Assembly (NCBI GenBank): GCA_964364605.1
Contig: CAYIMJ010000001.1
Location: forward strand, 1 to 48,442
Origin: an uncultured Candidatus Saccharibacteria bacterium
Lineage (GTDB): Bacteria > Patescibacteriota > Minisyncoccia > Phycocordibacterales > Phycocordibacteraceae
DNA: 48,442 nucleotides
Reading direction: 5' to 3'
Of the stretch, positions 1,948-30,475 are shown piece by piece. A program made the position numbers and the translations under genes. The notes beneath the pieces were generated by a model. That model was not told the origin of the DNA. It was given only the letters and a program-made list of their open reading frames with translations, and ran no database searches. Positions within the stretch are counted from its first letter, which is position 1. Every line of letters starts with the position of its first letter.

Positions 1948-2302
1948 ATAATTTATGTGTTAAGTGAGTTGTTTTGGTTAATAGTTTTTATGTGCTGCGC
2001 CGTGCGATGACTATTCTCGACCAAAAGTATCGCGCCGCGTGTATCGCGGACGCGACACACATGTGAAGCTTCGCTCCGTACTGGTATGCGCGGCAAGTGT
2101 GGACACTGGTTACATCCTGTGCACAAAAAAGTGCATAACTTTTTTCAAAAACGTGTCGAAAAAATACACGAAGTGTCTGGTATACCCCGTGAGATATCAC
2201 TTTGATCCTCCCAGTGTCCAACACTCGGTGTTGGACATGTGTATTCCGTATTTTTTCCAAGGTGAGGATTGCCACATGCATACAATGTACAAGGAGGTGC
2301 TA

Positions 2303-3094
2303 ATGGCGTTCTGGTATAGTTCCCGCATGAAGATCGTCTCGTGGAACGTAAATGGTCTGCGCTCCCTCGCAAACAACGGCTATTGGGAATCTTTTTTGAA
2401 AGGCGTAAAGCCAGATATTTTCTGCCTCCAAGAGACCAAAGCGAACCCTGAGCAAGTGTCGGAAGAGATGCTCTCCCCTCTTGGATTCCGCTCGTTCTTT
2501 TCATCGTGCCAAGTACGTAAAGGCTATAGTGGCGTCGCTATATATTCAAAAATCGAACCCTTGAAGGTCATTTACGGCATGGGAATAAAGGAGTTTGATC
2601 AGGAAGGGCGTCTGATAGGGGCCGAATACGAGGACTTCTGGCTCATAAATGCATACTTCCCCAACGGAGGCCAGGGCCCAGAACGTCTCGATTATAAAAT
2701 GCGTTTCTATGACGCATTCCTCGCATTTATAGAGAAACTCCGCAAGCAGAAACCGGTCATATTCTGCGGCGATGTGAACACCGCCCACGAGGAAATAGAT
2801 CTCGCGCGACCAAAAGAGAACGAGGACAATACCGGATTCCTCCCTGCAGAGCGCGCGTGGATAGACGAGGTCGTCAGCGCCGGATATATAGACTCCTTCC
2901 GCCACTTCTATCCACAAACCAAAGATGCTTACACTTATTGGGATATGAAGACTCGCGCACGAGACAGAAATGTCGGTTGGAGAATTGATTATTTTTTTGT
3001 TGCAAGTGAATTCATAAAGCGCGTGAAGAAAGCAGAAATCCACTCTGACATATATGGCTCCGACCACTGCCCTCTTTCCATCACAGTGTCCTAA
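2303..3094 (+). CDS. xth: exodeoxyribonuclease III
   Basis: MKIVSWNVNGLRS..FCLQETK..GYSGVAIYSK..NAYFPNGG..GDVNTAHEEIDL..WRIDYFFV..GSDHCPL are Xth/APE1 family motifs. AAGGAGG at 2291-2297 precedes ATG 2303. ATG 2327 (MKIVSW) is an alternative start. The 2039 ORF start is an upstream artefact. Confidence 0.93.
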   Translation: MAFWYSSRMKIVSWNVNGLRSLANNGYWESFLKGVKPDIFCLQETKANPEQVSEEMLSPLGFRSFFSSCQVRKGYSGVAIYSKIEPLKVIYGMGIKEFDQEGRLIGAEYEDFWLINAYFPNGGQGPERLDYKMRFYDAFLAFIEKLRKQKPVIFCGDVNTAHEEIDLARPKENEDNTGFLPAERAWIDEVVSAGYIDSFRHFYPQTKDAYTYWDMKTRARDRNVGWRIDYFFVASEFIKRVKKAEIHSDIYGSDHCPLSITVS

Positions 3095-3358
3095 AGGACA
3101 AGTTGTCCACAGGGTGTCCTTTACAATGTCCTTTACTAGAATAGTATTGGCAAAGGAAGAGATGTTCTTTACATAGTTCTTGAAAGCATCTGTCGGCATC
3201 GGTGCGCTTCTCGAGGTGCCTGCCTACGTCGCGGCGATCCGCGGTATAAGTATTGCGCACGGTATTCCTTGGCAAAAGCGCCAGTATGCTAAGTATAAAA
3301 AGCTACCCTCATTCTCGGGTCGGAGACCCCATCTACGCCCTGCTCCTTTTTGTCTCCG

Positions 3359-3388
3359 GCCACCACTCAGGGTGGCTTTTTTGTTTTT
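3359..3388 (+). terminator. rho-independent terminator with no annotated gene immediately upstream
   Basis: gccacc (3359-3364), loop actcag, ggtggc (3371-3376), followed by ttttttgttttt. Confidence 0.75.
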
Positions 3389-3465
3389 ATACGAGACGAC
3401 CGTGTTCCACACAATGCTTCACCGCACTTATGAGTATGAACCATGCTTATGACTTACCCCTACGT

Positions 3466-3502
3466 GCTAGCTACTTGGGGGTTTCACCCCCAAGTAGCTA
3501 GC
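3466..3502. terminator. perfect 16-bp hairpin overlapping the cca stop codon
   Basis: gctagctacttggggg (3466-3481), loop tttca, cccccaagtagctagc (3487-3502). There is no U-tract on either strand. The stop codon TAG of cca (3498-3500) lies in the stem. Confidence 0.5.
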
Positions 3503-4982
3503 AGACGTGATACTTCTCCATTATATGCTTTATTTCCTCATCTTCAGCAGCTTCCCTCCTCTGCTTCCCTGCTTCCCCAAGCTTCTTTAGCTCATCATCA
3601 GACATTTTAAATAGCTCTTCAGTCCTTTTATCAAGGTATTCTTCAGTATTCTTACCGGAATCATCAAGTATTTCCTCAAGAAGCGCATTAAGCGCCCACC
3701 CTATCCTCGGTCCAGGTTTCACCTGAAACTTATCCATGATGTGTGCCCCATCCGTTTTGAGCATTCCCACAGATATAGGGTCCCGAAGTGCCTGATCAAC
3801 CATCGCCTTATACTTACGGAAGCGAAATGGCTGCTCCTTCGGCCGTCCTGTACCTATGCGGTCGCAAATGCGGAGGTTAAGTAAATCAACGATATTTTCC
3901 TCCCCTACGTTCTTTATCATGCGGCGCACAGCAGAAAGGGTTATTTGCTCAGGATCCGAGAAGAACATGTGCCAACGGACCAGTTTAACGACCTTATCTA
4001 TTGTTTCACGTGAAAAATGCATGTCCTCTAGAGCTTTTTTCGTTACACGTGAACCAACTACCTCATGGCCATGGAAGCTCCAATCCTTCTTTTCTTCCAC
4101 CCATCGACGAGTCTCTGGCTTAGATATGTCGTGGTAGAGACCGGCAAGGCGTATATCGAATCCCCAGTCCTTATCAGCCGCATGCTGCATAGTGCGGAGG
4201 TTATGCCCGAAAACGTCATACGAATGCGCCTGGTTCTGCTCGACACCGATGCCACGAATAAGGTCTGGAACAATAAATTCCAATATTCCTAGTTGCTGTG
4301 CAAGAACAAGTGCGTTCATCGGCTGTTTTGAATTGAGTATCCTCACAAATTCATCACGGATCCTTTCACGTGAAACATGGCTTAAGTGCTTGCTATTTTC
4401 TTTTACTGCCGCAGCCGTATTGTTTTCTATTCCGAAATCAAGCTCGGCGACTAACCTAACCGCACGAAGCATGCGCAGAGCGTCCTCATTGAACCGCTCA
4501 GAGGCGTTACCCACGGCCCGCACCACTTTGTCCTTTATGTCCTTTTGACCATCGTACGGGTCAACCAGGTGTCCTATAGAGTCATCTAGCGCGATAGCAT
4601 TGATCGTAAAATCGCGGCGAGCAAGATCCTCAAGCAGGGAAGTGCCAAATTCTACTTTGTCTGGCCGGCGCTTGTCGGAATAGGCAGATTCGGTGCGATA
4701 AGGAGTCACTTCAACAATAGCGAGGCGAGAATCCTCTGAATTCGTCTTAATACCTACCGTGCCGTAGTCGTTTTCATAAAAAGAGTCAGGAAATAGGACT
4801 TGAATCTGCTCTGGGGTAGCGTTCGTAGTGACATCCCAGTCCTTTGGCTCTCTGCCGATGATAAGATCGCGGACACACCCGCCGACAAGATAGGCCTCGA
4901 AGCCCGCTTTCTGCAATCCATCGCTAACTACTGATATTTCGCTTGGAATACGATACGCCATGGGCGAATCGTAGCACAGCAT
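3498..4982 (-). CDS. cca: CCA-adding tRNA nucleotidyltransferase with C-terminal HD domain
   Basis: GGCVRDLIIGREPKDWDVTT (PolyA_pol head motif), RRDFTINA, then HD region LYHDISKP. The start is uncertain (ATG 4982 or ATG 4961, MAYRIP). Confidence 0.88.
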   Translation of the reverse strand: MLCYDSPMAYRIPSEISVVSDGLQKAGFEAYLVGGCVRDLIIGREPKDWDVTTNATPEQIQVLFPDSFYENDYGTVGIKTNSEDSRLAIVEVTPYRTESAYSDKRRPDKVEFGTSLLEDLARRDFTINAIALDDSIGHLVDPYDGQKDIKDKVVRAVGNASERFNEDALRMLRAVRLVAELDFGIENNTAAAVKENSKHLSHVSRERIRDEFVRILNSKQPMNALVLAQQLGILEFIVPDLIRGIGVEQNQAHSYDVFGHNLRTMQHAADKDWGFDIRLAGLYHDISKPETRRWVEEKKDWSFHGHEVVGSRVTKKALEDMHFSRETIDKVVKLVRWHMFFSDPEQITLSAVRRMIKNVGEENIVDLLNLRICDRIGTGRPKEQPFRFRKYKAMVDQALRDPISVGMLKTDGAHIMDKFQVKPGPRIGWALNALLEEILDDSGKNTEEYLDKRTEELFKMSDDELKKLGEAGKQRREAAEDEEIKHIMEKYHVC

Positions 4983-5022
4983 TCCTGGTTTTTTAGCATT
5001 TGTGCCATACTATGACGGATAC

Positions 5023-5094
5023 GCCCCGATGGTGAAACGGATATCACAACAGTCTTCGGAACTGTAGGTCCAAGTTCGATTCTTGGTCGGGGCA
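5023..5094 (+). tRNA. tRNA-Arg (anticodon UCG)
   Basis: Hand fold: acceptor GCCCCGA/TCGGGGC, D stem GTGA/TCAC, anticodon stem ACAGT/ACTGT with loop CTTCGGA, T arm CCAAG-TTCGATT-CTTGG, discriminator A. CCA is not encoded. Confidence 0.85.
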
Positions 5095-5102
5095 CTGGAA
5101 AA

Positions 5103-5137
5103 CAAAAGAGGCGATCGAATTCGATCGCCTCTTTTTG
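5103..5137. terminator. bidirectional rho-independent terminator
   Basis: aaaa + agaggcgatcgaattcgatcgcctct (perfect palindrome) + ttttt. It lies between tRNA-Arg (+) and the convergent 5155..5355 gene (-). Confidence 0.85.
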
Positions 5138-5154
5138 GGAAAAGAGCGTCAGGC

Positions 5155-5355
5155 CTACCGTTCGACGAGCTTTCCGCTTTTGTTGATGTGGAGCTTTCTG
5201 AGCGCCTTCCCGAGCTGCTTGATCTCGTAATCGATCGCGGCCTCGACGCTCGGATGTTTCCCAGACCGGACCTCTTCACGCAAGTCCTCGTAATTACCTT
5301 TTACGAACGTGAGAAGGCCAACTACCGTCCGTTTGCTAAATCCACTTGGGGGCAT
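5155..5355 (-). CDS. small hypothetical protein (66 aa)
   Basis: Strong SD AAGGAGGAAGTC precedes ATG 5355, and a terminator follows the stop directly. I recognise no family. Confidence 0.6.
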   Translation of the reverse strand: MPPSGFSKRTVVGLLTFVKGNYEDLREEVRSGKHPSVEAAIDYEIKQLGKALRKLHINKSGKLVER

Positions 5356-5494
5356 GACTTCCTCCTTTTGTTTTTGATTTATACCATACCGAACTCCGGT
5401 AACAATTTATTAAAAAATAAATATGATGTAAATAAAATAAAGGTTTTTTATTGATAAATTGAACTAAAAGTACAATCTATGCTATCTTATCGAC

Positions 5495-6298
5495 ATGATT
5501 TATGGCAACAAAAAACATCTCGAGGATCGAGTTGTAGAACTGCTTGCGGAGGACAGTAAATCGATAGCATCGCTGCATCAAACCCTTGCCGACAAGGAGG
5601 AGGGCGTATCGTTACGAGCGATATATAAATCAGTCCACGGCCTAATTGATGCCGGAGTTGTATTGAAAGTCGGGAGACGGATCATGCTAGACCAAGAATG
5701 GGTAAAACGCTTGGGAGAAATGCTAGGTTCCGTGTCTGCTCCAGCTCTTTCGGTTAAAGAACGTGCCGTTTATACATTTACCTCCTTTGAACACCTAGAC
5801 GCTTTTTGGAAAACTGTCATGATTCCACTGGAACACTCCCACTCAGCTGATGAAATATTCTTCTATAATCCACACAATTTTTGGGCTTATTTACCGGCCC
5901 GCAAGCAGAGCGAGGACGCGTATTATCAACACTTTTCGGGTAAACAGTACGGATTTTTCACGATAGGAGGGGATACTCAAGCAGATATTGAGTTCAAGAG
6001 AGGATATCAGAACGAAAATTTGCAAATAGACTTAAGAGATACAACGCTTTTTAGGAGGACCGACCATGTGACCATAGTAAAATCAATGATTATTACAGTG
6101 CGATTGGCTAAGGGGATTGCTGAGCGAATTGATAAACTCTATGCGTCTGGGGAGGGGATAGAGAACATCCTCCCGGAAATAGTACAGATATGTCGGAAGC
6201 CAGGGAAAATTCGATTTTTGATTGAGAATAATCAAACAAAAGCAGAAAAAATGAAGAGAATGCTTGCACGGAATTTCTATTTCAGACGGCCGGAATAA
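5495..6298 (+). CDS. hypothetical protein with N-terminal winged-helix-like segment
   Basis: N-terminus (SIASLHQTL..VSLRAIYKSVHGLIDAGVVLKVGRRIML) looks like a wHTH domain. The rest is unassigned. TATCTT sits 6 nt upstream of ATG. Confidence 0.6.
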   Translation: MIYGNKKHLEDRVVELLAEDSKSIASLHQTLADKEEGVSLRAIYKSVHGLIDAGVVLKVGRRIMLDQEWVKRLGEMLGSVSAPALSVKERAVYTFTSFEHLDAFWKTVMIPLEHSHSADEIFFYNPHNFWAYLPARKQSEDAYYQHFSGKQYGFFTIGGDTQADIEFKRGYQNENLQIDLRDTTLFRRTDHVTIVKSMIITVRLAKGIAERIDKLYASGEGIENILPEIVQICRKPGKIRFLIENNQTKAEKMKRMLARNFYFRRPE

Positions 6299-6361
6299 GA
6301 TATTCACTGATTTAAGGATGTTTCTATCAATAAGTGAACTCTCATTGTGTACTATTACAGT

Positions 6362-7042
6362 ATGCGAAAAGATAAGGGAACTGCTTTACAAATGCGCAAA
6401 AGTGGAAAGAGCTACAGTGAGATACATGCTGCATTAAAAATTCCAAAAGCAACTCTGTCAGACTGGTTTGGCGAGATCGGCTGGTCGAAAGATATGACCA
6501 AAAAACTCGCGTCCAGAGTACAGGTACAGCATACCGTTAGAATAATCGAGCTTGATAGAATTCGCGGACAACATCTTGCTCGCTCCTACGAAGAAGCACG
6601 AAACGAAGCTAGAGAGGATCTCAGTATTCTCAAGTACAACCCGCTTTTCATAGCTGGTCTTATGCTGTATTGGGGTGAAGGCGACAAGGCTACAAAGGCT
6701 CAGGTCAGACTCGCGAACACCGACCCGGAACTGATCAGGCTTTTTGTTTTCTTCTTAATAAAGATCTGCAACATACCGAGAGAAAAGGTCGGCGTTCATA
6801 TTCTCACGTACCCCGATATCGATGACAAATCTAACCGCCAATACTGGTCTGAAATATCGGGCATCGCCCCAGAGAAATTCCTAAAAAGTGTTCTTATACA
6901 GGGACGGCACAAAACGAGACGATTGGGACACGGCGTATGCAGTGTCTACGTATCGAGCACGTATTTCAAAGTTAAAATGCTCGAGTGGCTGAAGTTACTA
7001 CCGGAAGAATTGATGAATCTGCGATACTATGAGAACATGTAA
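6362..7042 (+). CDS. HTH protein with LAGLIDADG-like (homing-endonuclease-like) domain
   Basis: N-terminal HTH (KSGKSYSEIHAALKIPKATLSDW), then FIAGLMLYWGEGDK..VRLANTDPELIRLFVFFL, which resembles LAGLIDADG-type modules. ATG 6362 is preferred over GTG 6347. Confidence 0.5.
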   Translation: MRKDKGTALQMRKSGKSYSEIHAALKIPKATLSDWFGEIGWSKDMTKKLASRVQVQHTVRIIELDRIRGQHLARSYEEARNEAREDLSILKYNPLFIAGLMLYWGEGDKATKAQVRLANTDPELIRLFVFFLIKICNIPREKVGVHILTYPDIDDKSNRQYWSEISGIAPEKFLKSVLIQGRHKTRRLGHGVCSVYVSSTYFKVKMLEWLKLLPEELMNLRYYENM

Positions 7043-7047
7043 AATAC

Positions 7048-7121
7048 GCGGGTATGGTTTAGTGGTAGAACGCCACCTTGCCAAGGTGGAGACAGGGTTT
7101 CGATTACCCTTACCCGCACCA
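7048..7121 (+). tRNA. tRNA-Gly (anticodon GCC), CCA encoded
   Basis: Acceptor GCGGGTA/TACCCGC, anticodon stem CCACC/GGTGG with loop TTGCCAA, T arm AGGGT-TTCGATT-ACCCT, then A-CCA. Confidence 0.9.
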
Positions 7122-7315
7122 AAATCGAAATTTGACATCAAAAAGGTTCCCGCGCGCAAAAACATGCCCGATTGAGCCGTTTTTCTTCTAAAAGTCTTCT
7201 GTGGAGAACTGTTGATAAAGGTGTTCATACTGGGGATAAAGGACACTTGTTCCTAATGCATTCAAATTTAAGGTCCTAGAGTATACTGAGCAAATGAGCC
7301 ATATTTCTAAAAGCC

Positions 7316-7711
7316 GTGGATATTTCTGCTAAGTCTCGAAAGGAGATAGGTAATCTTGGGGAAAATATTGCCGCCGAGTACCTCAAGCGACATGGATTCG
7401 CTATCCGTGATAGAAATGTTGCACGCAAAACAGGTGAGCTTGATATCATCGCAGAGAAAGAAGATACGCTGTATTTTGTCGAAGTTAAGACGATGATTGT
7501 GGACGCATTCCGTGAAGAAAACCACGCCAGCGATGAGTACGATCCTTCGTTAAACCTTCATGCAATGAAAATACGAAAGGTTGCACGGACAGGGGAATGG
7601 TATGTCCTTGAAAAGGGGTGGGAAGGAGATTGGCAAGTAGATGGTTGTCTCGTGTGGCTGCGCCGTTCAGACGGCATGGCAAAAGTCCGCTACCTCCCGC
7701 AAATCGTCTGA
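7316..7711 (+). CDS. yraN: YraN family (UPF0102) endonuclease-like protein
   Basis: GNLGENIAAEYLKRHGFAIRDRN..GELDIIAEKEDTLYFVEVKT is typical YraN. GTG start. Confidence 0.85.
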   Translation: MDISAKSRKEIGNLGENIAAEYLKRHGFAIRDRNVARKTGELDIIAEKEDTLYFVEVKTMIVDAFREENHASDEYDPSLNLHAMKIRKVARTGEWYVLEKGWEGDWQVDGCLVWLRRSDGMAKVRYLPQIV

Positions 7712-7803
7712 GCTTTTGAGGAAAACTCATTCGGAGGTGACAGGGCAAGAACTTCTTCATCCACTCGCTCGTTTTGTAGTAACCTGTTAAGCTGTGCAAA
7801 CAA

Positions 7804-7874
7804 CGGGCCGGAGTATGCCGGTAGTACATCTGCTTTGGGAGCAGACAGACCGAGTTCAATTCTCGGCGGCCCGA
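7804..7874 (+). tRNA. tRNA-Pro (anticodon UGG)
   Basis: Acceptor CGGGCCG/CGGCCCG, D stem GTAT/GTAC, anticodon stem TCTGC/GCAGA with loop TTTGGGA, T arm CCGAG-TTCAATT-CTCGG, discriminator A. CCA is not encoded. Confidence 0.85.
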
Positions 7875-7967
7875 CTGAATGTAATGAGGGAGGCTTGATC
7901 AATAAATATATGTGGATAACAGGGATGCAGTCTAGAAATGACTGTAAGCTGTGAGTAATTAACTTAC

Positions 7968-9260
7968 ATGATGCCAAACCAACAACTTCTCGAATACGTT
8001 AAGCAGCAATTGAAAGAAGGTGTGAGTCGAGAACAAATTAAAAGTCTACTCTTAGCTAATAATTGGCAAGAAGCCGATATTAACGCAGCTTTTAACGTTA
8101 TTGCGGGTAACACGGCTCCTATGCCTGAATCGCAAACGCCACGACAGATCACGGGCACATTACCAGGAGTAACAGCTCTCTTGGGTCAGGCATGGTCGCT
8201 CTACAAACAAAGATTTGCGACATTTCTAGGAATCATGATAGTTCCGATACTGGTTTCTATGGCTCTTGTGGCAATGCTGGTTATTAGTATAGGGTCCGAA
8301 AAGGGTAGAATTTTCCTTGCAGAAAAACTAGCCGGAAGCAGCATTGAGGTTCTCCTTCTTATGTTGGGTGCGCTTGTTCTGTTTTCCTTCGCGGTAATTT
8401 TTATTGGTCAATCATGGGGTCAGACTTCTTTGCTTTTTGCGATAAAAGATAGCTCGGAAGAGATTGGGGTGTGGGAAGCGTACCGCAGAGGCTGGCACAA
8501 ATTGTATTCCTATTGGTGGATTACTTTGTTGATGGGATTTATTATATTAGGCGGATTTCTTTTATTCATAATTCCCGGAATAATTTTTGCGGTTTGGTTC
8601 AGTATGGCAATGTTCATTTTGATTGCTGAAGATCTAAAAGGAATGGATGCTCTCCTTAAGAGCCGCGAGTACGTAAGGGGGAGATGGGGTGATGTTCTTT
8701 GGCGTTTATTTTTCGTTAGTATTTTTTCGTTTATTCCTTCTATCGCGAGTACGTTTGTATTTAAATCTCTAAATATTCCTTTTGTGGAGACGCTCGGCAG
8801 TTTTGTTTTAACGATATTAATGACTCCTCTCATACTGACCTATTTATTTTTGTTATATAGCAATCTGCAAGCTAGAAAAAGTGATGCTTCATTTGTATCT
8901 ACCGGAGGTAAAAAGGCAGCTTTTATTTTTGTCGGAATTCTTGGCATGTTAATTATCCCAGCGATAATAGCTTTTGTTATTTTTTCAAGCCTTGGTATGG
9001 CAAGAGCAAAGAGTCGTGACTCTATACGACAACATGACATTGGGACAATTCAAGTCGCATTAGAAATGTATTATGGTGATCACTCGGGTACATATCCATC
9101 TACACTAAATGAACTGCCCCAAGAATATCTATCGAGCACCCTAGACCCTGTAACAAAACAGCCTTACCAATACCAATTACAAGCGGGTGGTAAAAATTAC
9201 GAAGTTTGTGCCCAATTAGAATCTCCAAAAACTCAGAAATGCGTTTCATCTCAATTTTAG
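7968..9260 (+). CDS. polytopic membrane protein with C-terminal type IV pilin-like domain
   Basis: Soluble N-terminal segment (EYVKQQLKEGVSREQIKSLLLANNWQEADINAAF), several hydrophobic helices, then IIPAIIAFVIFSSLGMARAKSRDSIRQHDIGTIQVALEMYYGDHSGTYP. That last stretch resembles the pilin helix plus head (ARDA.R..D...I..ALE.YY...G.YP) but lacks a G/FTLIE cleavage site. Confidence 0.65.
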   Translation: MMPNQQLLEYVKQQLKEGVSREQIKSLLLANNWQEADINAAFNVIAGNTAPMPESQTPRQITGTLPGVTALLGQAWSLYKQRFATFLGIMIVPILVSMALVAMLVISIGSEKGRIFLAEKLAGSSIEVLLLMLGALVLFSFAVIFIGQSWGQTSLLFAIKDSSEEIGVWEAYRRGWHKLYSYWWITLLMGFIILGGFLLFIIPGIIFAVWFSMAMFILIAEDLKGMDALLKSREYVRGRWGDVLWRLFFVSIFSFIPSIASTFVFKSLNIPFVETLGSFVLTILMTPLILTYLFLLYSNLQARKSDASFVSTGGKKAAFIFVGILGMLIIPAIIAFVIFSSLGMARAKSRDSIRQHDIGTIQVALEMYYGDHSGTYPSTLNELPQEYLSSTLDPVTKQPYQYQLQAGGKNYEVCAQLESPKTQKCVSSQF

Positions 9261-9274
9261 AAACTAATGAGAAT

Positions 9275-10426: not shown

Positions 10427-10515
10427 TCGTATACGCTAACGCATAATCGTTTTGAAAGACAGTGGAGTGAAAAGACTTCGCACGGACGCCAATTTCCTGG
10501 TATCCTCTTTTCAAA

Positions 10516-10586
10516 GCGGGATTAGTTTAATGGTAGAACATCAGTTTTCCAAACTGATAGCACCGGTCCGATTCCGGTATCCCGCA
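10516..10586 (+). tRNA. tRNA-Gly (anticodon UCC)
   Basis: Acceptor GCGGGAT/ATCCCGC, anticodon stem TCAGT/ACTGA with loop TTTCCAA, T arm ACCGG-TCCGATT-CCGGT, discriminator A. The T loop has C where U55 is expected. Confidence 0.8.
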
Positions 10587-10595
10587 CAAATGATA

Positions 10596-10628: not shown

Positions 10629-10635
10629 GGGCGAA

Positions 10636-16447: not shown

Positions 16448-16526
16448 CCCGTTAGAAATTAGTTTAATAAAGCATTGCTTGTTTTATTTTACACCCCCCC
16501 CCGACAATCTCGCCATTTCTAACGGG
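16448..16526. mobile_element. family-A inverted-repeat mini-element (79 nt) abutting the ppa start codon
   Basis: Arms CCCGTTAGAAAT (16448-16459) and ATTTCTAACGGG (16515-16526). Flanked by the direct repeat ATTCAT (16442-16447 and 16527-16532), which is ATGAAT on the gene strand. Contains a C9 tract at 16494-16502. Confidence 0.75.
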
Positions 16527-20056: not shown

Positions 20057-20074
20057 TGAGTTGCTCTTTGTTCA

Positions 20075-22152: not shown

Positions 22153-22198
22153 CGCAACACAGTACGGGTGAAATCCGCCATTGCCGAAGGCAGAGCGC

Positions 22199-22268
22199 GT
22201 ATACCCGTGAGATAGCATTTCAATGCAGTGTACAACTCGATAAACATTGGGCATCTCACGGGGTATAC
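22199..22268. repeat. family-B inverted repeat (arms GTATACCCGTGAGAT / ATCTCACGGGGTATAC) upstream of pilB
   Basis: Left arm 22199-22213, right arm 22253-22268, 39-nt spacer. The right arm ends in TATACT (22264-22269), 9 nt from ATG 22279. Confidence 0.75.
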
Positions 22269-22278
22269 TTTAGCGCAT

Positions 22279-24027
22279 ATGCACGTTTCGGAAGGGGAGC
22301 TGAAAGAATTCATCATCGACTCCGGTCTCGTCGTGAAGAAGGAGATTGATGCTGCAAGCGAAGAAGCCGTAAAGAAAGGTCAGTCGCTTGGCGATATACT
22401 CGTCTCGCGAGGATCGTTGACCGAAGATGCTCTGCGGCGCATCCAAGCGTACGTACTTGGGATTCCGTTTGTAAATTTAAAAGAGCATCGTGTCCCTGTC
22501 GATGTGCTCGCACTCATCCCAGAACCAATCGCACGCACGCACAACATCATTGCGTTCCGAAAAGAAGGAGATTCGCTCGAAGTCGCAATGCTTGACGTTG
22601 AAGATCTCGCTTCTATCGACTCTGTACGTAAAAAGACTGGCCTCAAGATATTATCACGATTGACCGATACGGAAAGTATCAAGTCAGCGCTCCTGCAATA
22701 TCAGAAGTCACTCAAAGATGAGTTCGGCGACATCATATCGACCGAGGCAGGGAAAATCCGTGCTGTTTCTGCAGGCAATAAGGACCTTTCGGGCGACGAA
22801 CTCAAGAAAATGGCTGAGGACTTACCGATCGTGCGCATCGTCGACACGCTTTTGCGGCACGCTATCGTTCAGGGTGCTTCCGACATTCATATCGAGCCTA
22901 TGGAGAACGAGGTACTCGTGCGCTATCGCATCGATGGCATCCTGCACGATGCAATGACGCTTCCCAAGCCAGCTGCTGCCGGTATCGTCGCGCGCATCAA
23001 GGTGCTCTCCAACCTAAAGCTCGACGAAAAACGCCTACCGCAAGACGGTCGTTTCAAAATGGAGACCGATGCAGATCGAGTTTCTTTCCGTGTCTCAATG
23101 CTCCCGACATTCTTCGGCGAGAAAACCGTGATGCGTCTTCTGCGCGAAACAGGGGAGGGCTTCACGCTCGATGCGCTCGGACTCCATGGGGAAAATATGG
23201 AGCGCATCCATCACGCTCTGAAGCAGACGACTGGCATCATCCTCATCTCGGGACCGACAGGCTCTGGAAAAACGACGACGCTTTACACGATGCTCGATAT
23301 CCTGAATCAACCGGACGTGAATATTTCAACCGTCGAGGATCCTATCGAGTATCAGATGAAGCGCGTCAATCAGACGCAAGTTAACCCAGAGATAGGGTTC
23401 ACCTTCGCCAACGGACTCCGATCACTCGTGCGCCAAGATCCAGACATCATCATGGTCGGCGAAATTCGCGACAGCGAGACAGCTTCGCTCGCGATCAATG
23501 CCGCGCTCACCGGCCACCTCGTACTCTCGACTATTCACACGAACAGCGCGGCAGGCGCCATACCTCGCCTTATTGATATGGGCATCGAGCCATTCCTCCT
23601 CGTTTCTACTATCCGCGTTATCGTAGGACAACGCCTCGTACGCAAACTCATCGAAAATAAAGAGCCATATTCGTTGGACAAGGCCGTGCGCGGGAAAATC
23701 GCGAGCGAAGAAGATTTTAATGCCGCATTCAAAGCTCTTGAAGACGAGAAGCTCGTCAGTAAAGGAGCAACGCTCGACACGATTCCTTTTTATCGACCAG
23801 TGGCATCATCTGAGTCTGAAGATGGCTATCGAAGTCGTATCGGCATCCATGAAGTGCTTGCTGTTTCGCCGGCCATTCGCGAAACCATCCTCCGATCAAG
23901 CACGAGTGACGCTATTGACGCACAAGCGAAAAAAGAGGGGATGCTTACGATGTTTCAAGATGGTCTCTACAAGGCTGCGCGCGGTATCACGAGCATTGAA
24001 GAGGTCCTGCGTGCGATAACTGAATGA
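22279..24027 (+). CDS. pilB: type IV pilus assembly ATPase PilB (GspE family)
   Basis: The N-terminal MshEN-like domain, Walker A GPTGSGKTTTLY, Asp/His boxes (VGEIRD, TGHLVLSTIHTN). ATG 22279 (MHVSEGELKEF) is preferred over GTG 22228. Confidence 0.93.
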   Translation: MHVSEGELKEFIIDSGLVVKKEIDAASEEAVKKGQSLGDILVSRGSLTEDALRRIQAYVLGIPFVNLKEHRVPVDVLALIPEPIARTHNIIAFRKEGDSLEVAMLDVEDLASIDSVRKKTGLKILSRLTDTESIKSALLQYQKSLKDEFGDIISTEAGKIRAVSAGNKDLSGDELKKMAEDLPIVRIVDTLLRHAIVQGASDIHIEPMENEVLVRYRIDGILHDAMTLPKPAAAGIVARIKVLSNLKLDEKRLPQDGRFKMETDADRVSFRVSMLPTFFGEKTVMRLLRETGEGFTLDALGLHGENMERIHHALKQTTGIILISGPTGSGKTTTLYTMLDILNQPDVNISTVEDPIEYQMKRVNQTQVNPEIGFTFANGLRSLVRQDPDIIMVGEIRDSETASLAINAALTGHLVLSTIHTNSAAGAIPRLIDMGIEPFLLVSTIRVIVGQRLVRKLIENKEPYSLDKAVRGKIASEEDFNAAFKALEDEKLVSKGATLDTIPFYRPVASSESEDGYRSRIGIHEVLAVSPAIRETILRSSTSDAIDAQAKKEGMLTMFQDGLYKAARGITSIEEVLRAITE

Positions 24028-25247
24028 CCATGAAATTTCGGGTTACCGTACGGAAAGAGGGTGCACCAGACCAAATACGCAACATCGAAGCATCGTCACG
24101 CTTCGATGTATACCATCAGATAAATAGTGAAGGCAGTTCCGTCACTTCAATTGAAGAGCTGCGCGGATTTAATCTTGATACCCTATCCCGCTTTAATATA
24201 TCGATCGGTACGGGAATAAAGCGTGTTGAAATAATCCGCACTGCAAAAAATGTGTCCGCGATGCTCTCCGCTGGCCTTTCCATTTCTCGTGCGCTTTCTA
24301 TCATTGAACGCCAATCAAGCAACAAGCATTTTAAGACAATTGCTGCCGGCCTTTCTGAATCAATAAAAAAAGGCTCCTCCTTTCACGAAGCTCTTACTGC
24401 CTACCCGAAAGTATTTCCCGAGATATTCGTCGCCATGGCGCGAGCAGGAGAGGAGTCAGGCTCCTTAGCTGACTCTCTTACTGTCGTCGCTCTCCAGATG
24501 GAACGTTCCGAGGAGTTAGTACGGAAAATCAGAGGCGCGATGATTTATCCGGCTATCGTTGTCACCGCAGTGATCATTGTCGGTATCCTCATGCTCATCT
24601 ACGTCGTACCGACCCTGACGAGCACCTTTACCCAGCTCGGGGTACAAGTACCGCTCGCCACACGAATGATTGTCGCGTTGTCGGATTTCATGGTCGCTCA
24701 TGTCGAACTTGTCCTCCTGGCAATCACTATAGGAGTGATAGGCGGCACTACATTCTTCCGATCGAGAATAGGGGGCAGGATAGTGCTGGCGTGTGCTTTG
24801 TATATGCCCGTTATAAATGAGCTCGTACGCGAGACGTATACTGCCCGAGCCTCTCGTACGCTCTCCTCACTTCTCTCTGCCGGCGTACCCGTACTTGAGG
24901 CTCTCTCCATCACCAAAGAAGTGGTGCATGCGGAGGCATTTGCGAAAGTGGTCGAGGAAGCAGAAGAACATGTGAAAAAAGGGGAGCCTCTTTCCACATC
25001 ATTTTCTGAACATGCGAAACTCTATCCAATTTTAATGAGCGATATGCTCGCAGTGGGGGAAGAGACCGGTAAAGTCGCCGAGATGCTTAAACAAATCGCG
25101 GAGTTTTATGAAGAAGATGTCGGTCAAAAAACAAAAGATCTTTCGACTATCATCGAGCCAGTCCTCATGCTCGTTATCGGAGCCTTTGTCGGCGTCTTTG
25201 CAGTCTCGATGATTGCACCGATTTATTCGCTCTCATCGGCTATATAA
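24024..25247 (+). CDS. pilC: type IV pilus platform protein PilC (GspF family)
   Basis: Two GspF repeats (SAGLSISRAL..., SAGVPVLEAL...) and three TM segments. ATGA overlap with the pilB stop. Confidence 0.92.
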   Translation: MTMKFRVTVRKEGAPDQIRNIEASSRFDVYHQINSEGSSVTSIEELRGFNLDTLSRFNISIGTGIKRVEIIRTAKNVSAMLSAGLSISRALSIIERQSSNKHFKTIAAGLSESIKKGSSFHEALTAYPKVFPEIFVAMARAGEESGSLADSLTVVALQMERSEELVRKIRGAMIYPAIVVTAVIIVGILMLIYVVPTLTSTFTQLGVQVPLATRMIVALSDFMVAHVELVLLAITIGVIGGTTFFRSRIGGRIVLACALYMPVINELVRETYTARASRTLSSLLSAGVPVLEALSITKEVVHAEAFAKVVEEAEEHVKKGEPLSTSFSEHAKLYPILMSDMLAVGEETGKVAEMLKQIAEFYEEDVGQKTKDLSTIIEPVLMLVIGAFVGVFAVSMIAPIYSLSSAI

Positions 25248-25248
25248 C

Positions 25249-25635
25249 ATGTCTTCTGCGCGCGGATTTTCACTCGTCGAAGTTACCGTCTCGATCCTCA
25301 TTATGAGCGTCATGTTTCTTCTGCTTCAAGCAGTTATACGCAGTAGCGTGCTCGTAAGAACATCAAAAAACCAGGGCATTGCTCTCGCAATCGCGAGCAA
25401 TAAGATTGAGAGTTTGCGCATCGGAGGCTATGCGACCCTCCCATCGGGAGGTTCCTTTTCAGATAGCCTCATAAGCACACTTCCCCGAGCAGCAACGACG
25501 ACGCTCGCCATCAGTGCCTACAATGCTAAAACAAAACAGGTCTCAGTAAGCGTAATATGGCTGGATTCAGGCTCTACCGCGTCAAGCACTGTCTCACTCT
25601 CAACTCTTATCACTGAGACCGGCGGACTTCCATGA
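25249..25635 (+). CDS. prepilin-type N-terminal cleavage/methylation domain protein (minor pseudopilin)
   Basis: MSSARGFSLVEVTVSILIMSVMFLLL is a class III signal peptide (G/FSLVE). Confidence 0.85.
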   Translation: MSSARGFSLVEVTVSILIMSVMFLLLQAVIRSSVLVRTSKNQGIALAIASNKIESLRIGGYATLPSGGSFSDSLISTLPRAATTTLAISAYNAKTKQVSVSVIWLDSGSTASSTVSLSTLITETGGLP

Positions 25636-26204
25636 CATTTCACCCTCCGACACGACAACGAGCATTCACTCTCATTGAAACGACTATCGTTATAGCTTTC
25701 AGTATCAGTATGATGGCCGCACTCGGCCTTTTGATCTATGACTTCGATAAGATTTCGACATATGATCGAACCTCAGCACAGTCATCCGGCTCCGCAAACG
25801 CGGCCATCCGTGAGATAGAATTATTCGCATTCCCCGCGAATGCAGTGCTTCAAACTCACACGTTTTCCAGCGCAACGTATACATCAACTTCGACCTCGCT
25901 CGTTCTTGAGATCCCTTCCGTCGACAGTTCCGGAAATATAATTTCCGGAACTCATGATTACGCGGCATTCTATGTCGTCGGAACGACGACAATGTATCGC
26001 CTCCTTGAGGCAAATGCTGCGAGTAAGCGTGTTTCAGGAACAAAGCGACTCAGTTCCTCTATCAACACATTGACCTTCACCTACAATGATAGCAATTTCA
26101 CCAATGTACACACTGTTACAGTCGACCTGCAGACGCAAGCGCGTGCAAAACAAGAGATTTTGAACGATCATCGGCGCGAGCAAATTAGATTACGTAATTT
26201 CTAA
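25632..26204 (+). CDS. prepilin-type N-terminal domain protein (minor pseudopilin)
   Basis: RQRAFTLIETTIVIAFSISMMAAL. ATGA overlap with the upstream gene. Confidence 0.8.
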   Translation: MTFHPPTRQRAFTLIETTIVIAFSISMMAALGLLIYDFDKISTYDRTSAQSSGSANAAIREIELFAFPANAVLQTHTFSSATYTSTSTSLVLEIPSVDSSGNIISGTHDYAAFYVVGTTTMYRLLEANAASKRVSGTKRLSSSINTLTFTYNDSNFTNVHTVTVDLQTQARAKQEILNDHRREQIRLRNF

Positions 26205-26214
26205 CACACATCCT

Positions 26215-27546
26215 ATGCGCCACATCCACAAACCGTCCAAGAACACCCGCGGGTATGTGCTTGTCATGTCGCTCGTTTTCCTTGGGATTTTTTTCACGGT
26301 TGGTAGCGCCTACTTGAGTTCCGTAACCAGCTCCGCACGAAACGCCAGATACGGCGTAGCGAGCGCACAGGCACTCTCACTGGCCGAAGCAGGCATGGAT
26401 AAAGCAGCGTATGAGCTAAATCAAAATACTTCCTACAGCGGGGAAACCAATACTGCGCTCAGTCCTGGAGTATTTACCATAGCCGTTTCGAACATCGATT
26501 CGATTACAAAACGGATTACGGTAACGGGATATGTGCCAAATAGTTCAAACCCCACAGCGACAAGAATTATCAAAGCAAACGTGGGTATTAATAATGATGT
26601 CGTCTCTTTCCACTACGGTGTTCAGTCAGGAGTCGGGGGATTCCAACTTGATAATACCTCTTCCATCACCGGCAATGTGTACTCGAGCGGATCGGTCATC
26701 GGGAGCAGTCAAAATTACATATACGGCGATGTCATTTCTGCAGGAGCAAGCGGGCTAGTGTACGGTATTCACGCAACCAGTTCGGTGTATGCTCACACTA
26801 TCGGAAATGCTTCTGCAAATACTATTATCGACAGAAACGCCTATTACGTCACCAAGACCAATACAACCGTGAGTGGAACTTCGTACCCAAACAGTCCCGA
26901 CCAGGCCACAACATCGCTGCCGATTTCAGATGCCCAAATCGGTGAGTGGGAAACCCTCGCGGCTGCAGGAGGAACCGCGACATGCACAAACGGCTCATAT
27001 AATATTTCGTCCGGGAATGTGAGTCTTGGGCCTGTGAAGATTCCTTGTGACCTGACCATCAGCAACACCTCCGTTGTAACGTTAAACGGGCATATATGGG
27101 TCACTGGCAATATCGTTATACAAAATTCTGCTATCGTAAAAATGGCAGCATCATTGGGAACCGAGACTGTGACGATTATAGCTGACAATCCGTCAAACAG
27201 ACTTACCAGCAGCACGATAGCTGTAAAAAACACTGCGTCATTTCAAAATTCGGGAACGGCCGGATCATTCATTCTGCTAGTTTCTCAAAACAACAGTGCC
27301 GAGAATGCTGGGGGAGTAAGAGCAATCGAGTTGGAAAACAATGTTTCGGCGATGATTGCATACGCGGCGCACGGACTTATCGAACTAGAGAACAGTATTT
27401 CTTTGAAAGAGGTTACTGCATACAAAATACATTTGAAAAATTCAGCCAATGTAAGATACGACACTGGTCTTGCAAACGTCATATTCGATTCAGGCCCAGG
27501 CGGGAGCTGGAGCTTTACTCCTGGCACTTACGTCATTACCCGATAG
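26215..27546 (+). CDS. pilus-associated protein with PilX-like N-terminus and repetitive beta-rich body
   Basis: RGYVLVMSLVFLGIFFTVGSAYLSSVTSSARNARY...AQALSLAEAGMDKAAYEL resembles the PilX N-terminal domain. The remainder is Ser/Thr/Asn/Gly-rich and repetitive. Confidence 0.6.
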   Translation: MRHIHKPSKNTRGYVLVMSLVFLGIFFTVGSAYLSSVTSSARNARYGVASAQALSLAEAGMDKAAYELNQNTSYSGETNTALSPGVFTIAVSNIDSITKRITVTGYVPNSSNPTATRIIKANVGINNDVVSFHYGVQSGVGGFQLDNTSSITGNVYSSGSVIGSSQNYIYGDVISAGASGLVYGIHATSSVYAHTIGNASANTIIDRNAYYVTKTNTTVSGTSYPNSPDQATTSLPISDAQIGEWETLAAAGGTATCTNGSYNISSGNVSLGPVKIPCDLTISNTSVVTLNGHIWVTGNIVIQNSAIVKMAASLGTETVTIIADNPSNRLTSSTIAVKNTASFQNSGTAGSFILLVSQNNSAENAGGVRAIELENNVSAMIAYAAHGLIELENSISLKEVTAYKIHLKNSANVRYDTGLANVIFDSGPGGSWSFTPGTYVITR

Positions 27547-27572
27547 GGGTTTTATACTGATATGATAGCTGC

Positions 27573-28316
27573 ATGCTTATTGTAGCCAACTGGAAGGCAT
27601 ACGTAGAAGATTTAGGAAAAGCAAAGAAACTCCTTGCCGTAAGCAAGCGGCTCGCGCGCACGACTTCGTGCGATATTGTGCTTGCTCCGCCGTCGCCACT
27701 TCTCGGAGCGCTCGCGGTGCGTAATAAATCAAAAGTTGCTTTCGCGACGCAAGACGTCTCTCGAACGACAGGGGGAGCGAAGACTGGGGAGTCGACCGCT
27801 GAAGCCTACGCAGCCATCGGGGTAATGTATGCGATCCTGGGACATTCCGAGCGCCGAGCGCTCGGCGATACGGAACAAATAATTGCTGAGAAAATCGCGC
27901 ATGCACTCGCTCACGGACTCACGCCCATCCTCTGTGTCGGCGAACATGAACGCGACGGGGAAGGACACTATCTCAGCTATGTGCGTGAAGAACTTACTTC
28001 TGCAATCGGATCACTCACGCCAAAAGAGCGCTCGAAAGTCATTGTCGCCTATGAACCTCTCTGGGCCATCGGCAAGACAGCTGCCGAAGCAATCCAGTCG
28101 AACGATCTTGCAGAGATGGTGTTGTACATCCGGAAAGTGCTCTCGGAACTCCTGCCGGGGAAAAGTTCGCGACAGACGCTCGTGCTTTATGGAGGATCAG
28201 TCGAACCGGGAAATATCCGCGGACTTGCAGGCGACTCAAATGTTGACGGATTTCTTGTCGGTCATGCTTCGGTAGATCCGGTTGCATTCTCGCTTCTTGT
28301 AAAACAACTTGCCTGA
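27573..28316 (+). CDS. tpiA: triosephosphate isomerase
   Basis: IVANWKA, ILGHSERR, CVGE, VAYEPLWAIG, YGGSV. Confidence 0.95.
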   Translation: MLIVANWKAYVEDLGKAKKLLAVSKRLARTTSCDIVLAPPSPLLGALAVRNKSKVAFATQDVSRTTGGAKTGESTAEAYAAIGVMYAILGHSERRALGDTEQIIAEKIAHALAHGLTPILCVGEHERDGEGHYLSYVREELTSAIGSLTPKERSKVIVAYEPLWAIGKTAAEAIQSNDLAEMVLYIRKVLSELLPGKSSRQTLVLYGGSVEPGNIRGLAGDSNVDGFLVGHASVDPVAFSLLVKQLA

Positions 28317-28324
28317 TAATGCGT

Positions 28325-28438
28325 CCCGTTAGAAATCACGAACACGTCTATCAAAGTGATCACGAAACGTTATGGACCGCAGTAACAAAATAAAATATGA
28401 CACCCTTTATGCGACGTTCGTATTCTATTTCTAACGGG
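28325..28438. mobile_element. family-A inverted-repeat mini-element (114 nt) between the duplicated pgk start codons
   Basis: Arms at 28325-28336 and 28427-28438. Flanks are ATGCGT (28319-28324) and ATGCGC (28439-28444). Confidence 0.75.
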
Positions 28439-29599
28439 ATGCGCAGCGTCCGCGACATCCGACTATTCGAGAATATTCCGATACTCGTTCGGACGGCGCT
28501 CAATGTCCCGATTGAAAATGGGAAAGTCGTCAACGACTACCGATTACGACGCGCACTGCCAACCATTAGATTTCTTTCCGAACGAGGTGCGAAAGTCATT
28601 CTCATCAGCCACATCGGAGAGCAGGGGACTGAGACACTCGAACCGGTTGCGCAAGCTCTCGGGAAACTCATATCCCGAGTCTCGTTCTTCGGTGAGACCA
28701 TCGGGGAGCGGGCCCGAGGAGCCATACGGGAACTTTCGCCAGGAGGCATCCTGGTACTTGAAAATCTCCGCCGCAATAAAGGTGAAGTGATGAATGATCG
28801 AGCCTTCACCAAAGAACTTGCGGCGCTTGCTGACGTCTTCGTTCAAGATTCTTTTGATACTTGCCACCGTCGTCACGCCTCAATCATCGGTGTTCCTGAA
28901 TTATTACCAAGTTATGCCGGACTCCTTCTTGAGGAAGAGATCGAGGAACTTTCGGAAGCGCTCATGCCGAAGCATCCGGCGCTTGCAGTTATCGGCGGAG
29001 CGAAATTCAGCACGAAGGAAGCAGTGCTTACTACGCTTCTCAAAACATATGATCATGTGTTTGTCGGCGGAGCACTTGCCAATGACTTCCTGAAAGCGGC
29101 GGGACAAGGGGTAGGGAAGTCGCTTGTTTCAGGAGCTGACTCAGACTCTATTAAAAAACTTCTCACCAATCCTAAACTGGTATTACCCGTAGACTCGTTT
29201 GTCGTTCCAGCAACGAGCATCGGCGCTTTGAATACGAAAATGAACGCGCGCGTCGCAACTGCCGGACAAGTACGGCCCGATGAAGTCATTCTCGATCATG
29301 GTCCCGGCACTTCAGCACTCTTAGCTAACCTTGCCGAAAAAGCGAAAAATATTCTCTGGAACGGCCCCTTGGGAAATTACGAGCACGGCTTTGTAGATGC
29401 AACCAATGCTTTCGCGCGCGCGGTCGCAGACTCGGGAGCGCACTCGGTCGTCGGCGGCGGCGACACTATCGCAGCGATAGAGAACCTCGGCCTTCTTCCG
29501 CACTTTTCTTTTGTCTCGACTGGCGGCGGCGCCATGCTCGACCTCCTCGCAAAGGGAACTCTTCCCGGCATTGCAGTACTTGACAAAACACACAACTAG
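28439..29599 (+). CDS. pgk: phosphoglycerate kinase
   Basis: MRSVRDIRLFENIPILVRTALNVP..ISHIG...ENLRRNKGE..GGAKFSTK..GGGDT. The conserved N-terminus begins at ATG 28439. In-frame ATG 28397 would add the element-encoded peptide MTPFMRRSYSISNG. Confidence 0.93.
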   Translation: MRSVRDIRLFENIPILVRTALNVPIENGKVVNDYRLRRALPTIRFLSERGAKVILISHIGEQGTETLEPVAQALGKLISRVSFFGETIGERARGAIRELSPGGILVLENLRRNKGEVMNDRAFTKELAALADVFVQDSFDTCHRRHASIIGVPELLPSYAGLLLEEEIEELSEALMPKHPALAVIGGAKFSTKEAVLTTLLKTYDHVFVGGALANDFLKAAGQGVGKSLVSGADSDSIKKLLTNPKLVLPVDSFVVPATSIGALNTKMNARVATAGQVRPDEVILDHGPGTSALLANLAEKAKNILWNGPLGNYEHGFVDATNAFARAVADSGAHSVVGGGDTIAAIENLGLLPHFSFVSTGGGAMLDLLAKGTLPGIAVLDKTHN

Positions 29600-29651
29600 T
29601 GTAATATATATGCAGGTTTGAGAGCAACTCACTCATCACATAAGGAGCTTT

Positions 29652-29747
29652 ATGCCCGAAATCCTCTTACTGGCGATTCCGGTTGGCGGCATGTTCTTTC
29701 TGCTTTATTTCGTTGGGAAATTTTTTCGATCGGACTACGCTGAATAA
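29652..29747 (+). CDS. candidate small membrane peptide (31 aa), not in the ORF track
   Basis: AAGGAG (29642-29647) lies 4 nt before ATG. Own translation: MPEILLLAIPVGGMFFLLYFVGKFFRSDYAE. A hairpin at 29761-29787 follows. Confidence 0.45.
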   Translation: MPEILLLAIPVGGMFFLLYFVGKFFRSDYAE

Positions 29748-29798
29748 AAAGGGGGTTCGAGTGCCGGCATCCATAAGATGTCGGCACTTTACTGGAAT

Positions 29799-29842
29799 CG
29801 GCCAGAACGCCCCGCCTGCTTTGCAGCGGGGATGAATGGCCG
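29799..29842. repeat. structured hairpin motif, copy 1
   Basis: CGGCCA-gaacg-CCCCG-c-CTGC-ttt-GCAG-CGGGG-atgaa-TGGCCG. Confidence 0.6.
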
Positions 29843-29895
29843 AAATTAAACATGCGCGGCGGAGGCCGCATCTTTATCCAGCAAAACACCCTGGT

Positions 29896-29946
29896 GTCCG
29901 TCTCGCCAATGCCCCGTCCGCTTGCGGCGGGGATGGCGAAACGGAC
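29896..29946. repeat. structured hairpin motif, copy 2 (possible HIT-gene terminator)
   Basis: GTCCGT-c-TCGCCA-atg-CCCCG-t-CCGC-tt-GCGG-CGGGG-a-TGGCGA-a-ACGGAC. Same architecture as copy 1, with different but still complementary outer and inner stems. Confidence 0.6.
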
Positions 29947-29950
29947 TGTT

Positions 29951-30361
29951 TTACTTTATGTGTGCGCGAATTTTTTCGGCTAAAACTGCGGCAGCATCCT
30001 TAGGAAGATCCTTATGCGGCCAGAAGTTGAACTCGTCGCGGGAGTGACGGGGGATGATGTGAAAGTGGAGATGAAAAACGATCTGCCCCGCAGCCGCCTC
30101 ATGATTGGAATTGATGTGGACACCGTGCGCGCCGACAGCATCTCGTACCGCAGGAGCGATCTTCCGCACGGTACGCATCACAGCAGCAAGCGTTGCATCA
30201 TCTGCGTCAAAAATATTTCTCACTGATTTCTTCGGTATCACAAGTGTGTGGCCAGGCGTAACCGGTTTCACATCGAGGAAAGCGAGAGTATCGTCGTCTT
30301 CATACACAATATCAGCAGGAACTTCACGCCGGATGATCTTCATAAAAATGGTGTCTTCCAT
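29951..30361 (-). CDS. HIT family (histidine triad) protein
   Basis: FMKIIRREVPADIVYEDDDTLAFLD..PGHTLVIPKK..HLHFHIIP. Confidence 0.93.
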   Translation of the reverse strand: MEDTIFMKIIRREVPADIVYEDDDTLAFLDVKPVTPGHTLVIPKKSVRNIFDADDATLAAVMRTVRKIAPAVRDAVGAHGVHINSNHEAAAGQIVFHLHFHIIPRHSRDEFNFWPHKDLPKDAAAVLAEKIRAHIK

Positions 30362-30368
30362 TTCGTAA

Positions 30369-30475
30369 GTATACTCCGTGAGATAGGTGTTCCTGGGGCT
30401 ACCTGCTCGAATATCGAGCAGGGCAACGTAAGCGCATAAGCAGAGAAATGGAGCGAATTATCTCATGGGGTATAC
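30369..30475. repeat. family-B inverted repeat in the HIT/recJ divergent promoter region
   Basis: Arms GTATACTCCGTGAGAT (30369-30384) and ATCTCATGGGGTATAC (30460-30475). The 75-nt spacer contains the perfect hairpin CCTGCTCGA-ata-TCGAGCAGG. Confidence 0.75.

Follow-up and report, generated by a model that had tools for sequence, protein, structure and literature searches.

The 48,442-nt stretch analysed here (the window) is contig CAYIMJ010000001.1 (C1) of assembly GCA_964364605.1, from the 738-kb genome of an uncultured Candidatus Saccharibacteria bacterium (96 contigs, 49.7% G+C), and it carries a short palindromic motif upstream of xth, upstream of pilB and between the divergent HIT and recJ genes. 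An earlier note on these sites had described a palindromic family with outward-facing TATAC(T/A) boxes and had offered two readings, either mobile elements that supply promoters, as Correia elements do in Neisseria, or paired operator sites for one regulator. We find the motif at all three sites, as two inverted pairs and one solo arm: the pilB pair spans 22199-22268 (its left arm is one C short), the second pair (30369-30475) fills the gap between HIT and recJ, and the solo arm GTATACCCCGTGAGAT lies at 2180-2195, one base away from the position first assigned to it (2179-2194). The reported spacings hold as well, with TATACT 9 nt from the pilB ATG (22279), TATACA 11 nt from the recJ ATG (30488) and a minus-strand TATACT 6 nt from the HIT ATG (30361). 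When up to three mismatches are allowed, the window contains five matches to the motif versus 0.35 expected, a number reached by none of 100 shuffles; the fifth match (37236, three mismatches) looks like chance.

Inverted motif pairs in the genome, genus and order

Across the whole genome the motif occurs almost exclusively as inverted pairs, namely seven GTATAC-type pairs plus the solo arm and two pairs of a GTTAGAT variant, giving a total of at least nine pairs where none is expected by chance. The conserved unit is a 12-bp terminal inverted repeat, CCCCGT(G/T)AGATA ... TATCT(C/A)ACGGGG, and the four bases immediately outside it are direct repeats, most commonly TATA (in the context G-TATA-C) and also TGTA, TACA, CTCG, CGGG, TTCG and CAAA. 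The positions of the window's copies, together with those of a sister family (family A) discussed below, are collected in Table 1. No right arm for the solo copy is recognisable within 220 nt, and the intergenic region in which it lies measures 355 nt, from the end of a minus-strand gene at 1947 to xth, which has a Shine-Dalgarno (SD)-led start at 2303. Just to the right of the solo arm, in this unusually long region, stands a palindrome with a 9-bp stem, GTCCAACAC-tcg-GTGTTGGAC (2210-2240).

Table 1. Motif copies, adjoining promoter hexamers and family A elements in the window.
Feature	Position	Strand	Details
Solo (truncated) copy	2181..2196	+	TATA flank 2181-2184; left terminal repeat CCCCGTGAGATA 2185-2196
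Left TATA copy of target-site duplication, pilB promoter	22200..22203	.	Empty sites in G047, G005, G056
Short-class element at pilB, 60 nt	22204..22263	.	Left repeat CCCGTGAGATA (one C lost) 22204-22214; unique core; right repeat CATCTCACGGGG 22252-22263
pilB -10 hexamer TATACT	22264..22269	+	First four bases are the right TATA copy; 9 nt, then pilB ATG 22279-22281
HIT -10 hexamer TATACT	30368..30373	-	Bases 30370-30373 are the left TATA copy; 6 nt, then HIT ATG 30361-30359; exact leaderless spacing
Long-class element at HIT/recJ, 97 nt	30374..30470	.	Left repeat CTCCGTGAGATA 30374-30385; unique core; right repeat TATCTCATGGGG 30459-30470
Right TATA copy at HIT/recJ	30471..30478	+	TATA 30471-30474 inside TATACAAT; recJ -10 hexamer TACAAT 30473-30478; 9 nt, then recJ ATG 30488
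Family A elements	16448-16526, 28325-28438, 39386-39497, 45899-45976		Arms TCCCGTTAGAAAT; related cores

The paired pattern recurs in 30 of 151 congeners, which yielded a genus set of 74 pairs, and in 19 of 301 genomes and 17 of 190 genera of the order, with at most 20 pairs per genome; genus and order together gave a final set of 108 copies. A reversed control pattern had no match in the genus search and matched in two genomes of the order search. All of these genomes are metagenome-assembled, and repeats may be under-assembled; the copies were found via their arms, which makes arm conservation partly an ascertainment effect. Carrier genomes in the order differ greatly in base composition, and their copies match those of the genus in TATA flanks, start-codon adjacency and the presence of two size classes. 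Measured from CCCC to GGGG, the lengths of the 108 copies cluster at 57-66 nt (mode 59) and at 93-103 nt (mode 95-97), within an overall range of 57-110 nt, and enclose a non-coding core of approximately 35 or 72 nt. The arm variant is the same at both ends in 107 of the 108 copies, and the only identical pair of elements is a tandem duplicate in genome G309. By eye, the pilB and FKBP cores of the genome under study and one core of genome G005 look related, at roughly two thirds identity.

We also considered what the cores might be. Structured or tRNA-like cores were rejected on folding (mean z-score of +0.2 for the short and -1.1 for the long class), and no Rfam family was found inside the elements other than a model of a MITE (miniature inverted-repeat transposable element)-derived miRNA, whose match (E = 0.01) fell below its gathering score. 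Copying of cores from flanking DNA was likewise discarded, having been seen for a tRNA-carrying copy alone.

Empty sites and the four-base duplication

Comparison of orthologous intergenic regions revealed empty sites with a single TATA. In G047, G014, G056, G061, G017 and G001 the HIT-recJ region is only about 25 nt long and reads cat-N7-8-G-TATA-CAAT-N8-9-ATG (in G047, cat-TTCGGAAG-TATA-CAATAACCTTCAC-ATG), while the genome under study and G005 have TATA-[97-102 nt]-TATA exactly where these relatives hold their single TATA. Either AGTATACAAT or GATACAAT is conserved before recJ throughout the Kaiserbacteria. At the pilB locus, the empty sites of G047, G005 and G056 read gcgcTATACT or ggTATACT, followed by 8-9 nt and the ATG; at FKBP, G014 and G047 are empty and read GTAGTATACT and GTAGTATAAT, respectively; and at a response-regulator locus the element is missing from four relatives, which read GTAGTATACT or GTAGTATATT. 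With PBP2, this makes five loci at which empty sites hold one copy of the target sequence. Because empty sites at several loci hold a single copy, the outer GTATAC of the motif is host DNA, that is, a G, the duplicated TATA and a C, with TATA as target-site duplication and none of it belonging to the element. Assignment of GTATAC to the inverted repeat itself was tried and rejected, since its variants GTGTAC and GTACAC are direct repeats (TGTA, TACA) and the empty sites hold one GTATAC.

In the final set, 51 of 108 copies have identical 4-nt flanks, which are TATA in 31 of these 51. Among the genus elements the flanks are identical in 39 of 74, versus 0 of 74 for the next four bases outward, and TATA makes up half of the duplications, versus 0.27% of genome 4-mers. 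The empty sites and the 4-bp duplications thus bear out the suggestion that the pairs are mobile palindromic elements. At HIT/recJ the arms of the two occupied alleles (the genome under study and G005) differ at 1 of 24 positions; an alignment of their cores, with numerous gaps, matches at 48 of 66 positions, a weak but significant similarity (6 of 500 shuffles reach its score).

Host promoters and recurrent positions

To place the boxes in their promoter context, we used 388 confidently placed start codons of the genome. At 71 of these 388 starts the ATG follows the end of a TAnnnT hexamer by exactly 6 nt, versus a background of about 9 per position, and SD-like motifs precede 33; the upstream logo has T-G-n directly 5' of the hexamer, with no -35 seen, and TATACT is the commonest hexamer among leaderless-type starts. 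In sigma-70 promoters, a hexamer at -12 to -7 puts the transcription start on the ATG. We infer from these upstream regions that the genome makes mostly leaderless mRNAs from extended -10 promoters that lack a -35 element and, because of this architecture, that the TATAC(T/A) boxes are probably the genes' own -10 hexamers. The earlier idea that the elements carry outward-facing boxes and thereby supply promoters is not supported by this comparison, as the boxes are present in single copy in relatives that lack the element, which marks them as host leaderless -10 hexamers whose TATA was duplicated on insertion. The Correia-like reading is consequently only partly right: the elements are mobile and palindromic, with promoters that belong to the host.

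The registration between elements and hexamers is tight. Of 53 element ends that have a leaderless-type hexamer, 46 have it starting no more than 2 nt away (offset 0 in 37 and offset 2 in 9, the latter being, on reading, offset-0 TATACT hexamers with a longer gap); in the other seven it starts four bases later, mainly at one orthologous locus, PBP2. The preferred target is the TATA of G-TATA-C, in this lineage the start of TATACT, the commonest leaderless -10 hexamer. Insertion splits the hexamer and the TATA duplication rebuilds a complete one beside the gene, or beside both genes of a divergent pair, as at HIT/recJ, where it restores both overlapping hexamers, TATACT for HIT and TACAAT for recJ. 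Because these promoters lack a -35 element, they would tolerate an element placed directly against the upstream side of the -10 hexamer, where the G run that ends the arm even takes the place of the extended -10 G, and we infer that the downstream hexamer stays the working promoter. In element-free HIT/recJ regions (loci L086, L088 and L090; window 30362-30487), one palindromic GTATAC appears to serve two overlapping divergent leaderless -10 boxes, TATACT and TACAAT.

In different species, one and the same nucleotide position is used by different elements. Of 80 recJ loci from Kaiserbacteria, two more have other elements inserted at this TATA (a tandem of two short ones at L131 and an 85-nt one at L133), such that, together with the element shared by the genome under study and G005, at least three different elements occupy the TATA before recJ. 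Similarly, the element at the PBP2 gene (contig C15 of the genome, 5716-5819) lies within the 3' end of the gene upstream, where it occupies the four bases just before a TATCAT hexamer. At least three element types occur at this position (arms GTTAGAGAT with about 60 nt, arms GTTAGATAA with about 95 nt, and a 61-nt form), many species being empty, and the duplicated bases (CGAG, CGGG or CAGG) match whichever variant the empty sites show locally. Survival of random insertions alone would not give this same-position pattern, and the comparison therefore argues for repeated independent insertion at the same nucleotide. Consistent with this are tandem arrays in which two or three elements have a TATA in common where they join, found at L229 (302-493, G309, in which two 63-nt units are identical), L063 (598-730, G115) and L131. 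At PBP2 (C15 5716-5819 and L249-L251, L255, L256, L268 and L274) the element sits within the final codons of the gene upstream, whose C-terminus it replaces; two of the three reading frames of the arms contain stop codons.

Origin of the elements and competing explanations

We consider it probable that the motif pairs are copies of a non-autonomous, MITE-like insertion element that targets the TATA of -10 boxes and makes a 4-bp target-site duplication. Sequence comparison shows insertion with duplication, a host origin of the -10 boxes, leaderless promoter architecture, recurrent positions and patchy spread in genus and order alike. Such elements would be mobilised in trans by an enzyme making 4-nt staggered cuts that constrains only the ends and the overall length of the element; the copies would then be old, independently evolving lineages moving by cut-and-paste, and their loss would be precise. 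Several results weigh against this reading. Identical flanks are lacking in 57 of the 108 copies; two tight length classes persist order-wide and are unexplained by neutral decay; and the cores show no detectable similarity between copies within a genome, form no clusters and have only a weak consensus overall, whereas an ordinary MITE family has related cores. Nor did the search for a mobilising enzyme find a cognate transposase in the families and genomes covered: PF01609, PF13701, PF13546 and PF13586 had no match in the 5 to 10 of ten element-rich genomes searched per family, some of them 100% complete, and PF00665 had a single match in five element-rich genomes, to an rve element in G005 without these arms. 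Within the genome under study, the search for an autonomous partner, as arm pairs 250-4000 bp apart, gave noise only.

A different account of the same data would make the arms the propagated unit. Here, an unrecognised order-wide enzyme would recognise the 12-bp arm pair at two fixed spacings and insert "hairpin cassettes" at the upstream edge of the -10 box, perhaps reading distorted or melted promoter DNA, and the core could be any sequence, including a complete tRNA gene. We regard this as rather unlikely; if true, it would make these promoter-homing mobile elements of a new kind, with cargo that can be exchanged, and not decayed insertion sequences (IS). Unlikely, too, is a domesticated module that arrived by transposition and whose arms the host now keeps, either to provide context upstream of the promoter or to bind a conserved protein, making them regulatory components of the promoters in which they lie. 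The near-intact arms beside diverged cores at HIT/recJ would fit such a module, as would the tight length classes, the occurrence of the same 12-mer throughout an order with saturated neutral sites, and the position of the arm's terminal G run, which sits where the G of an extended -10 lies. Yet arm conservation is in part a product of the way in which the copies were found, the arms of the G005 response-regulator copy have decayed, showing that arms do erode, these genes lack the element but still operate in the closest relatives, and arms facing gene 3' ends are as intact as those facing start codons.

Promoter donation in the manner of Correia elements, by which element-borne outward promoters would activate neighbouring genes, is improbable. 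It would account for an open reading frame (ORF) start within 25 nt of an element end in 73 of 108 copies and for hexamers that abut the arms, and it is described for Correia elements (PMC10969869), but empty alleles have the hexamer too, at the identical position, it is made of the duplication and host bases instead of element bases, and no -35-like sequence is conserved in the cores; since the hexamers pre-exist, donation is not needed. We judge slightly more improbable still that the elements act as RNA, the transcribed pair folding into a 12-17-bp hairpin as a site for RNase III or other processing, like Correia elements or rRNA intervening sequences. The stems are perfect, copies lie upstream of 16S and 23S rRNA genes, inside one 23S gene and (two of them) inside tRNA-like genes, and arm mismatches in the dozen copies examined first seemed to allow G-U pairing on the sense strand. 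This sense-strand bias failed on the larger sample, where 31 one-sided elements gave 10 G-U versus 11 A-C mismatches; moreover, the outer variants TGTA and TACA are direct and not complementary repeats, elements at protein-coding genes lie upstream of the inferred leaderless start, and the cores are unstructured and harbour no Rfam family above its gathering score. Finally, the paired operators of a single DNA-looping regulator, the second reading of the earlier note, are extremely unlikely. Pairs do sit at promoters with two preferred spacings, and some positions are conserved between species. However, the orthologous promoters of the closest species are empty and the flanks are 4-bp direct repeats; the flanked genes (pilB, HIT, recJ, FKBP, response regulator, FtsK, PBP2) share no function; further copies occur within rRNA operons, tRNA genes and phage contigs as well as in tandem arrays; and the arms are patchy throughout the whole order. 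Operator sites would be expected to persist at orthologous promoters and to flank the genes of a regulon.

The MITE-like element that we favour shares with MITEs its shortness, the absence of coding capacity, terminal inverted repeats of at least 10 bp, a short target-site duplication, and multiple, mostly intergenic copies that are polymorphic among relatives. Its size falls in the MITE range (about 50-800 bp) without a coding frame, and the repeats and the duplication with single-copy empty sites are present; relatedness between copies over their whole length is absent. It differs further in that only the 12-bp ends are common to copies with unrelated cores and two tight length classes, in that no matching transposase or full-length IS was found in the searches described above, and in that the same ends occur throughout an order of the Candidate Phyla Radiation (CPR). 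Prokaryotic MITEs are described as non-autonomous class II elements (PMC10969869, PMC11602168). In the literature searched we found no link between MITEs and Patescibacteria/CPR, neither group being mentioned in these two reviews, and no description of such a MITE-like family for these bacteria; its promoter-box targeting and end-only conservation appear unusual.

Correia elements (CREE) of Neisseria are approximately 100-155 bp long, with 26-bp repeats, a TA duplication and related cores. Like the elements described here they are palindromic mini-elements found directly in front of genes, where an A/T-rich target is duplicated at positions that resemble promoters; the present elements cannot be classed with them, having other arm sequences, a 4-bp duplication and -10 boxes that are host DNA. 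As first described, Correia elements were much longer than the present ones, at 204 bp; they have their own promoters and an integration host factor (IHF) site, and RNase III cleaves their transcripts (PMC10969869). A variable centre between inverted copies of a short conserved sequence is also found in REPIN/REP (repetitive extragenic palindromic) elements, which are mobilised by the Y1 transposase RAYT, and in integron attC sites (of variable length, about 57-141 bp). REPINs and attC sites are not known to make a target-site duplication, and the duplications of the present elements set them apart from REPIN/RAYT systems. In addition, attC sites form cassette arrays beside an integrase and have the ends RYYYAAC/GTTRRRY, unlike the dispersed elements here with their 4-bp duplications and other ends.

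The closest comparison is family A, whose arm CCCGTTAGAAAT the earlier note had correctly likened to that of the -10-box family (family B); a congener carries GTATACCCCGTTAGAA. The arms are identical at 9 of 12 positions, the elements have a 4-bp flanking repeat and the same size range, and intermediate arm types (GTTAGATA, GTTAGAGAT) occur in congeners. Besides the four elements in the window, the genome has about 20 family A pairs on further contigs, for example at C4 8484-8598. Family A elements are flanked as ATGNN-T[...]A-TGNN, a 4-bp duplication of TGNN in which the element's terminal A rebuilds ATG, so in both families insertion regenerates an expression signal, ATG in one and the -10 box in the other. 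The families differ in core and location: in this genome the roughly 20 copies of family A have related cores, suggestive of a recent burst, and they sit at start codons or in frame within genes; the cores of family B are unrelated, and its copies occupy -10 boxes.

These genomes, of about 0.7 Mb, have almost no spare DNA, and a mobile element surviving there must rebuild the signal that it cuts. One family doing so at -10 boxes through its target-site duplication and its sister at start codons would illustrate how selfish DNA persists in extremely streamlined genomes. The elements may also serve to mark promoter positions in uncultured organisms, and they carry a warning for annotation, as "conserved palindromes with -10 boxes" can be insertion scars.

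Some copies occupy unusual locations. Those in rRNA operons (L060 603-707 on contig C11 of G115, L059, L061, L066 and L067) lie 30-90 nt upstream of 16S or 23S genes, apart from one inside the 23S rRNA gene of G115, within an insertion of about 200 nt at approximately model positions 1930-1955, presumably near helix 69 by comparison with the E. coli 23S sequence. Two elements from different families of the order, L029 1495-1613 (G132) and L218 1500-1607 (G360), have a complete tRNA gene as their core (Val-CAC and Gly-CCC, respectively), and each interrupts, at the anticodon loop, a degenerate copy of the tRNA that it carries. Two viral contigs of IMG/VR hold a copy, L244 (4251-4309) and L275 (4201-4294); the L244 copy, which lies between two genes and has flanks that do not match, is in what we take to be a phage fragment from its ORFs, which resemble a terminase, a portal protein and a LAGLIDADG endonuclease. 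Phage as a vector was considered and set aside as weakly supported, with a copy in only these two viral contigs. Lastly, short-loop hairpins with the same core, GCCTGCCCCGTGAGAT-gccgtcttcggc-TATCTCACGGGG, occur in the genome under study on C13 (2388-2432), C20 (from 3110) and C3 (from 21150) and in G002 (L028); two of them have a common loop, and they are possibly minimal forms of the element.

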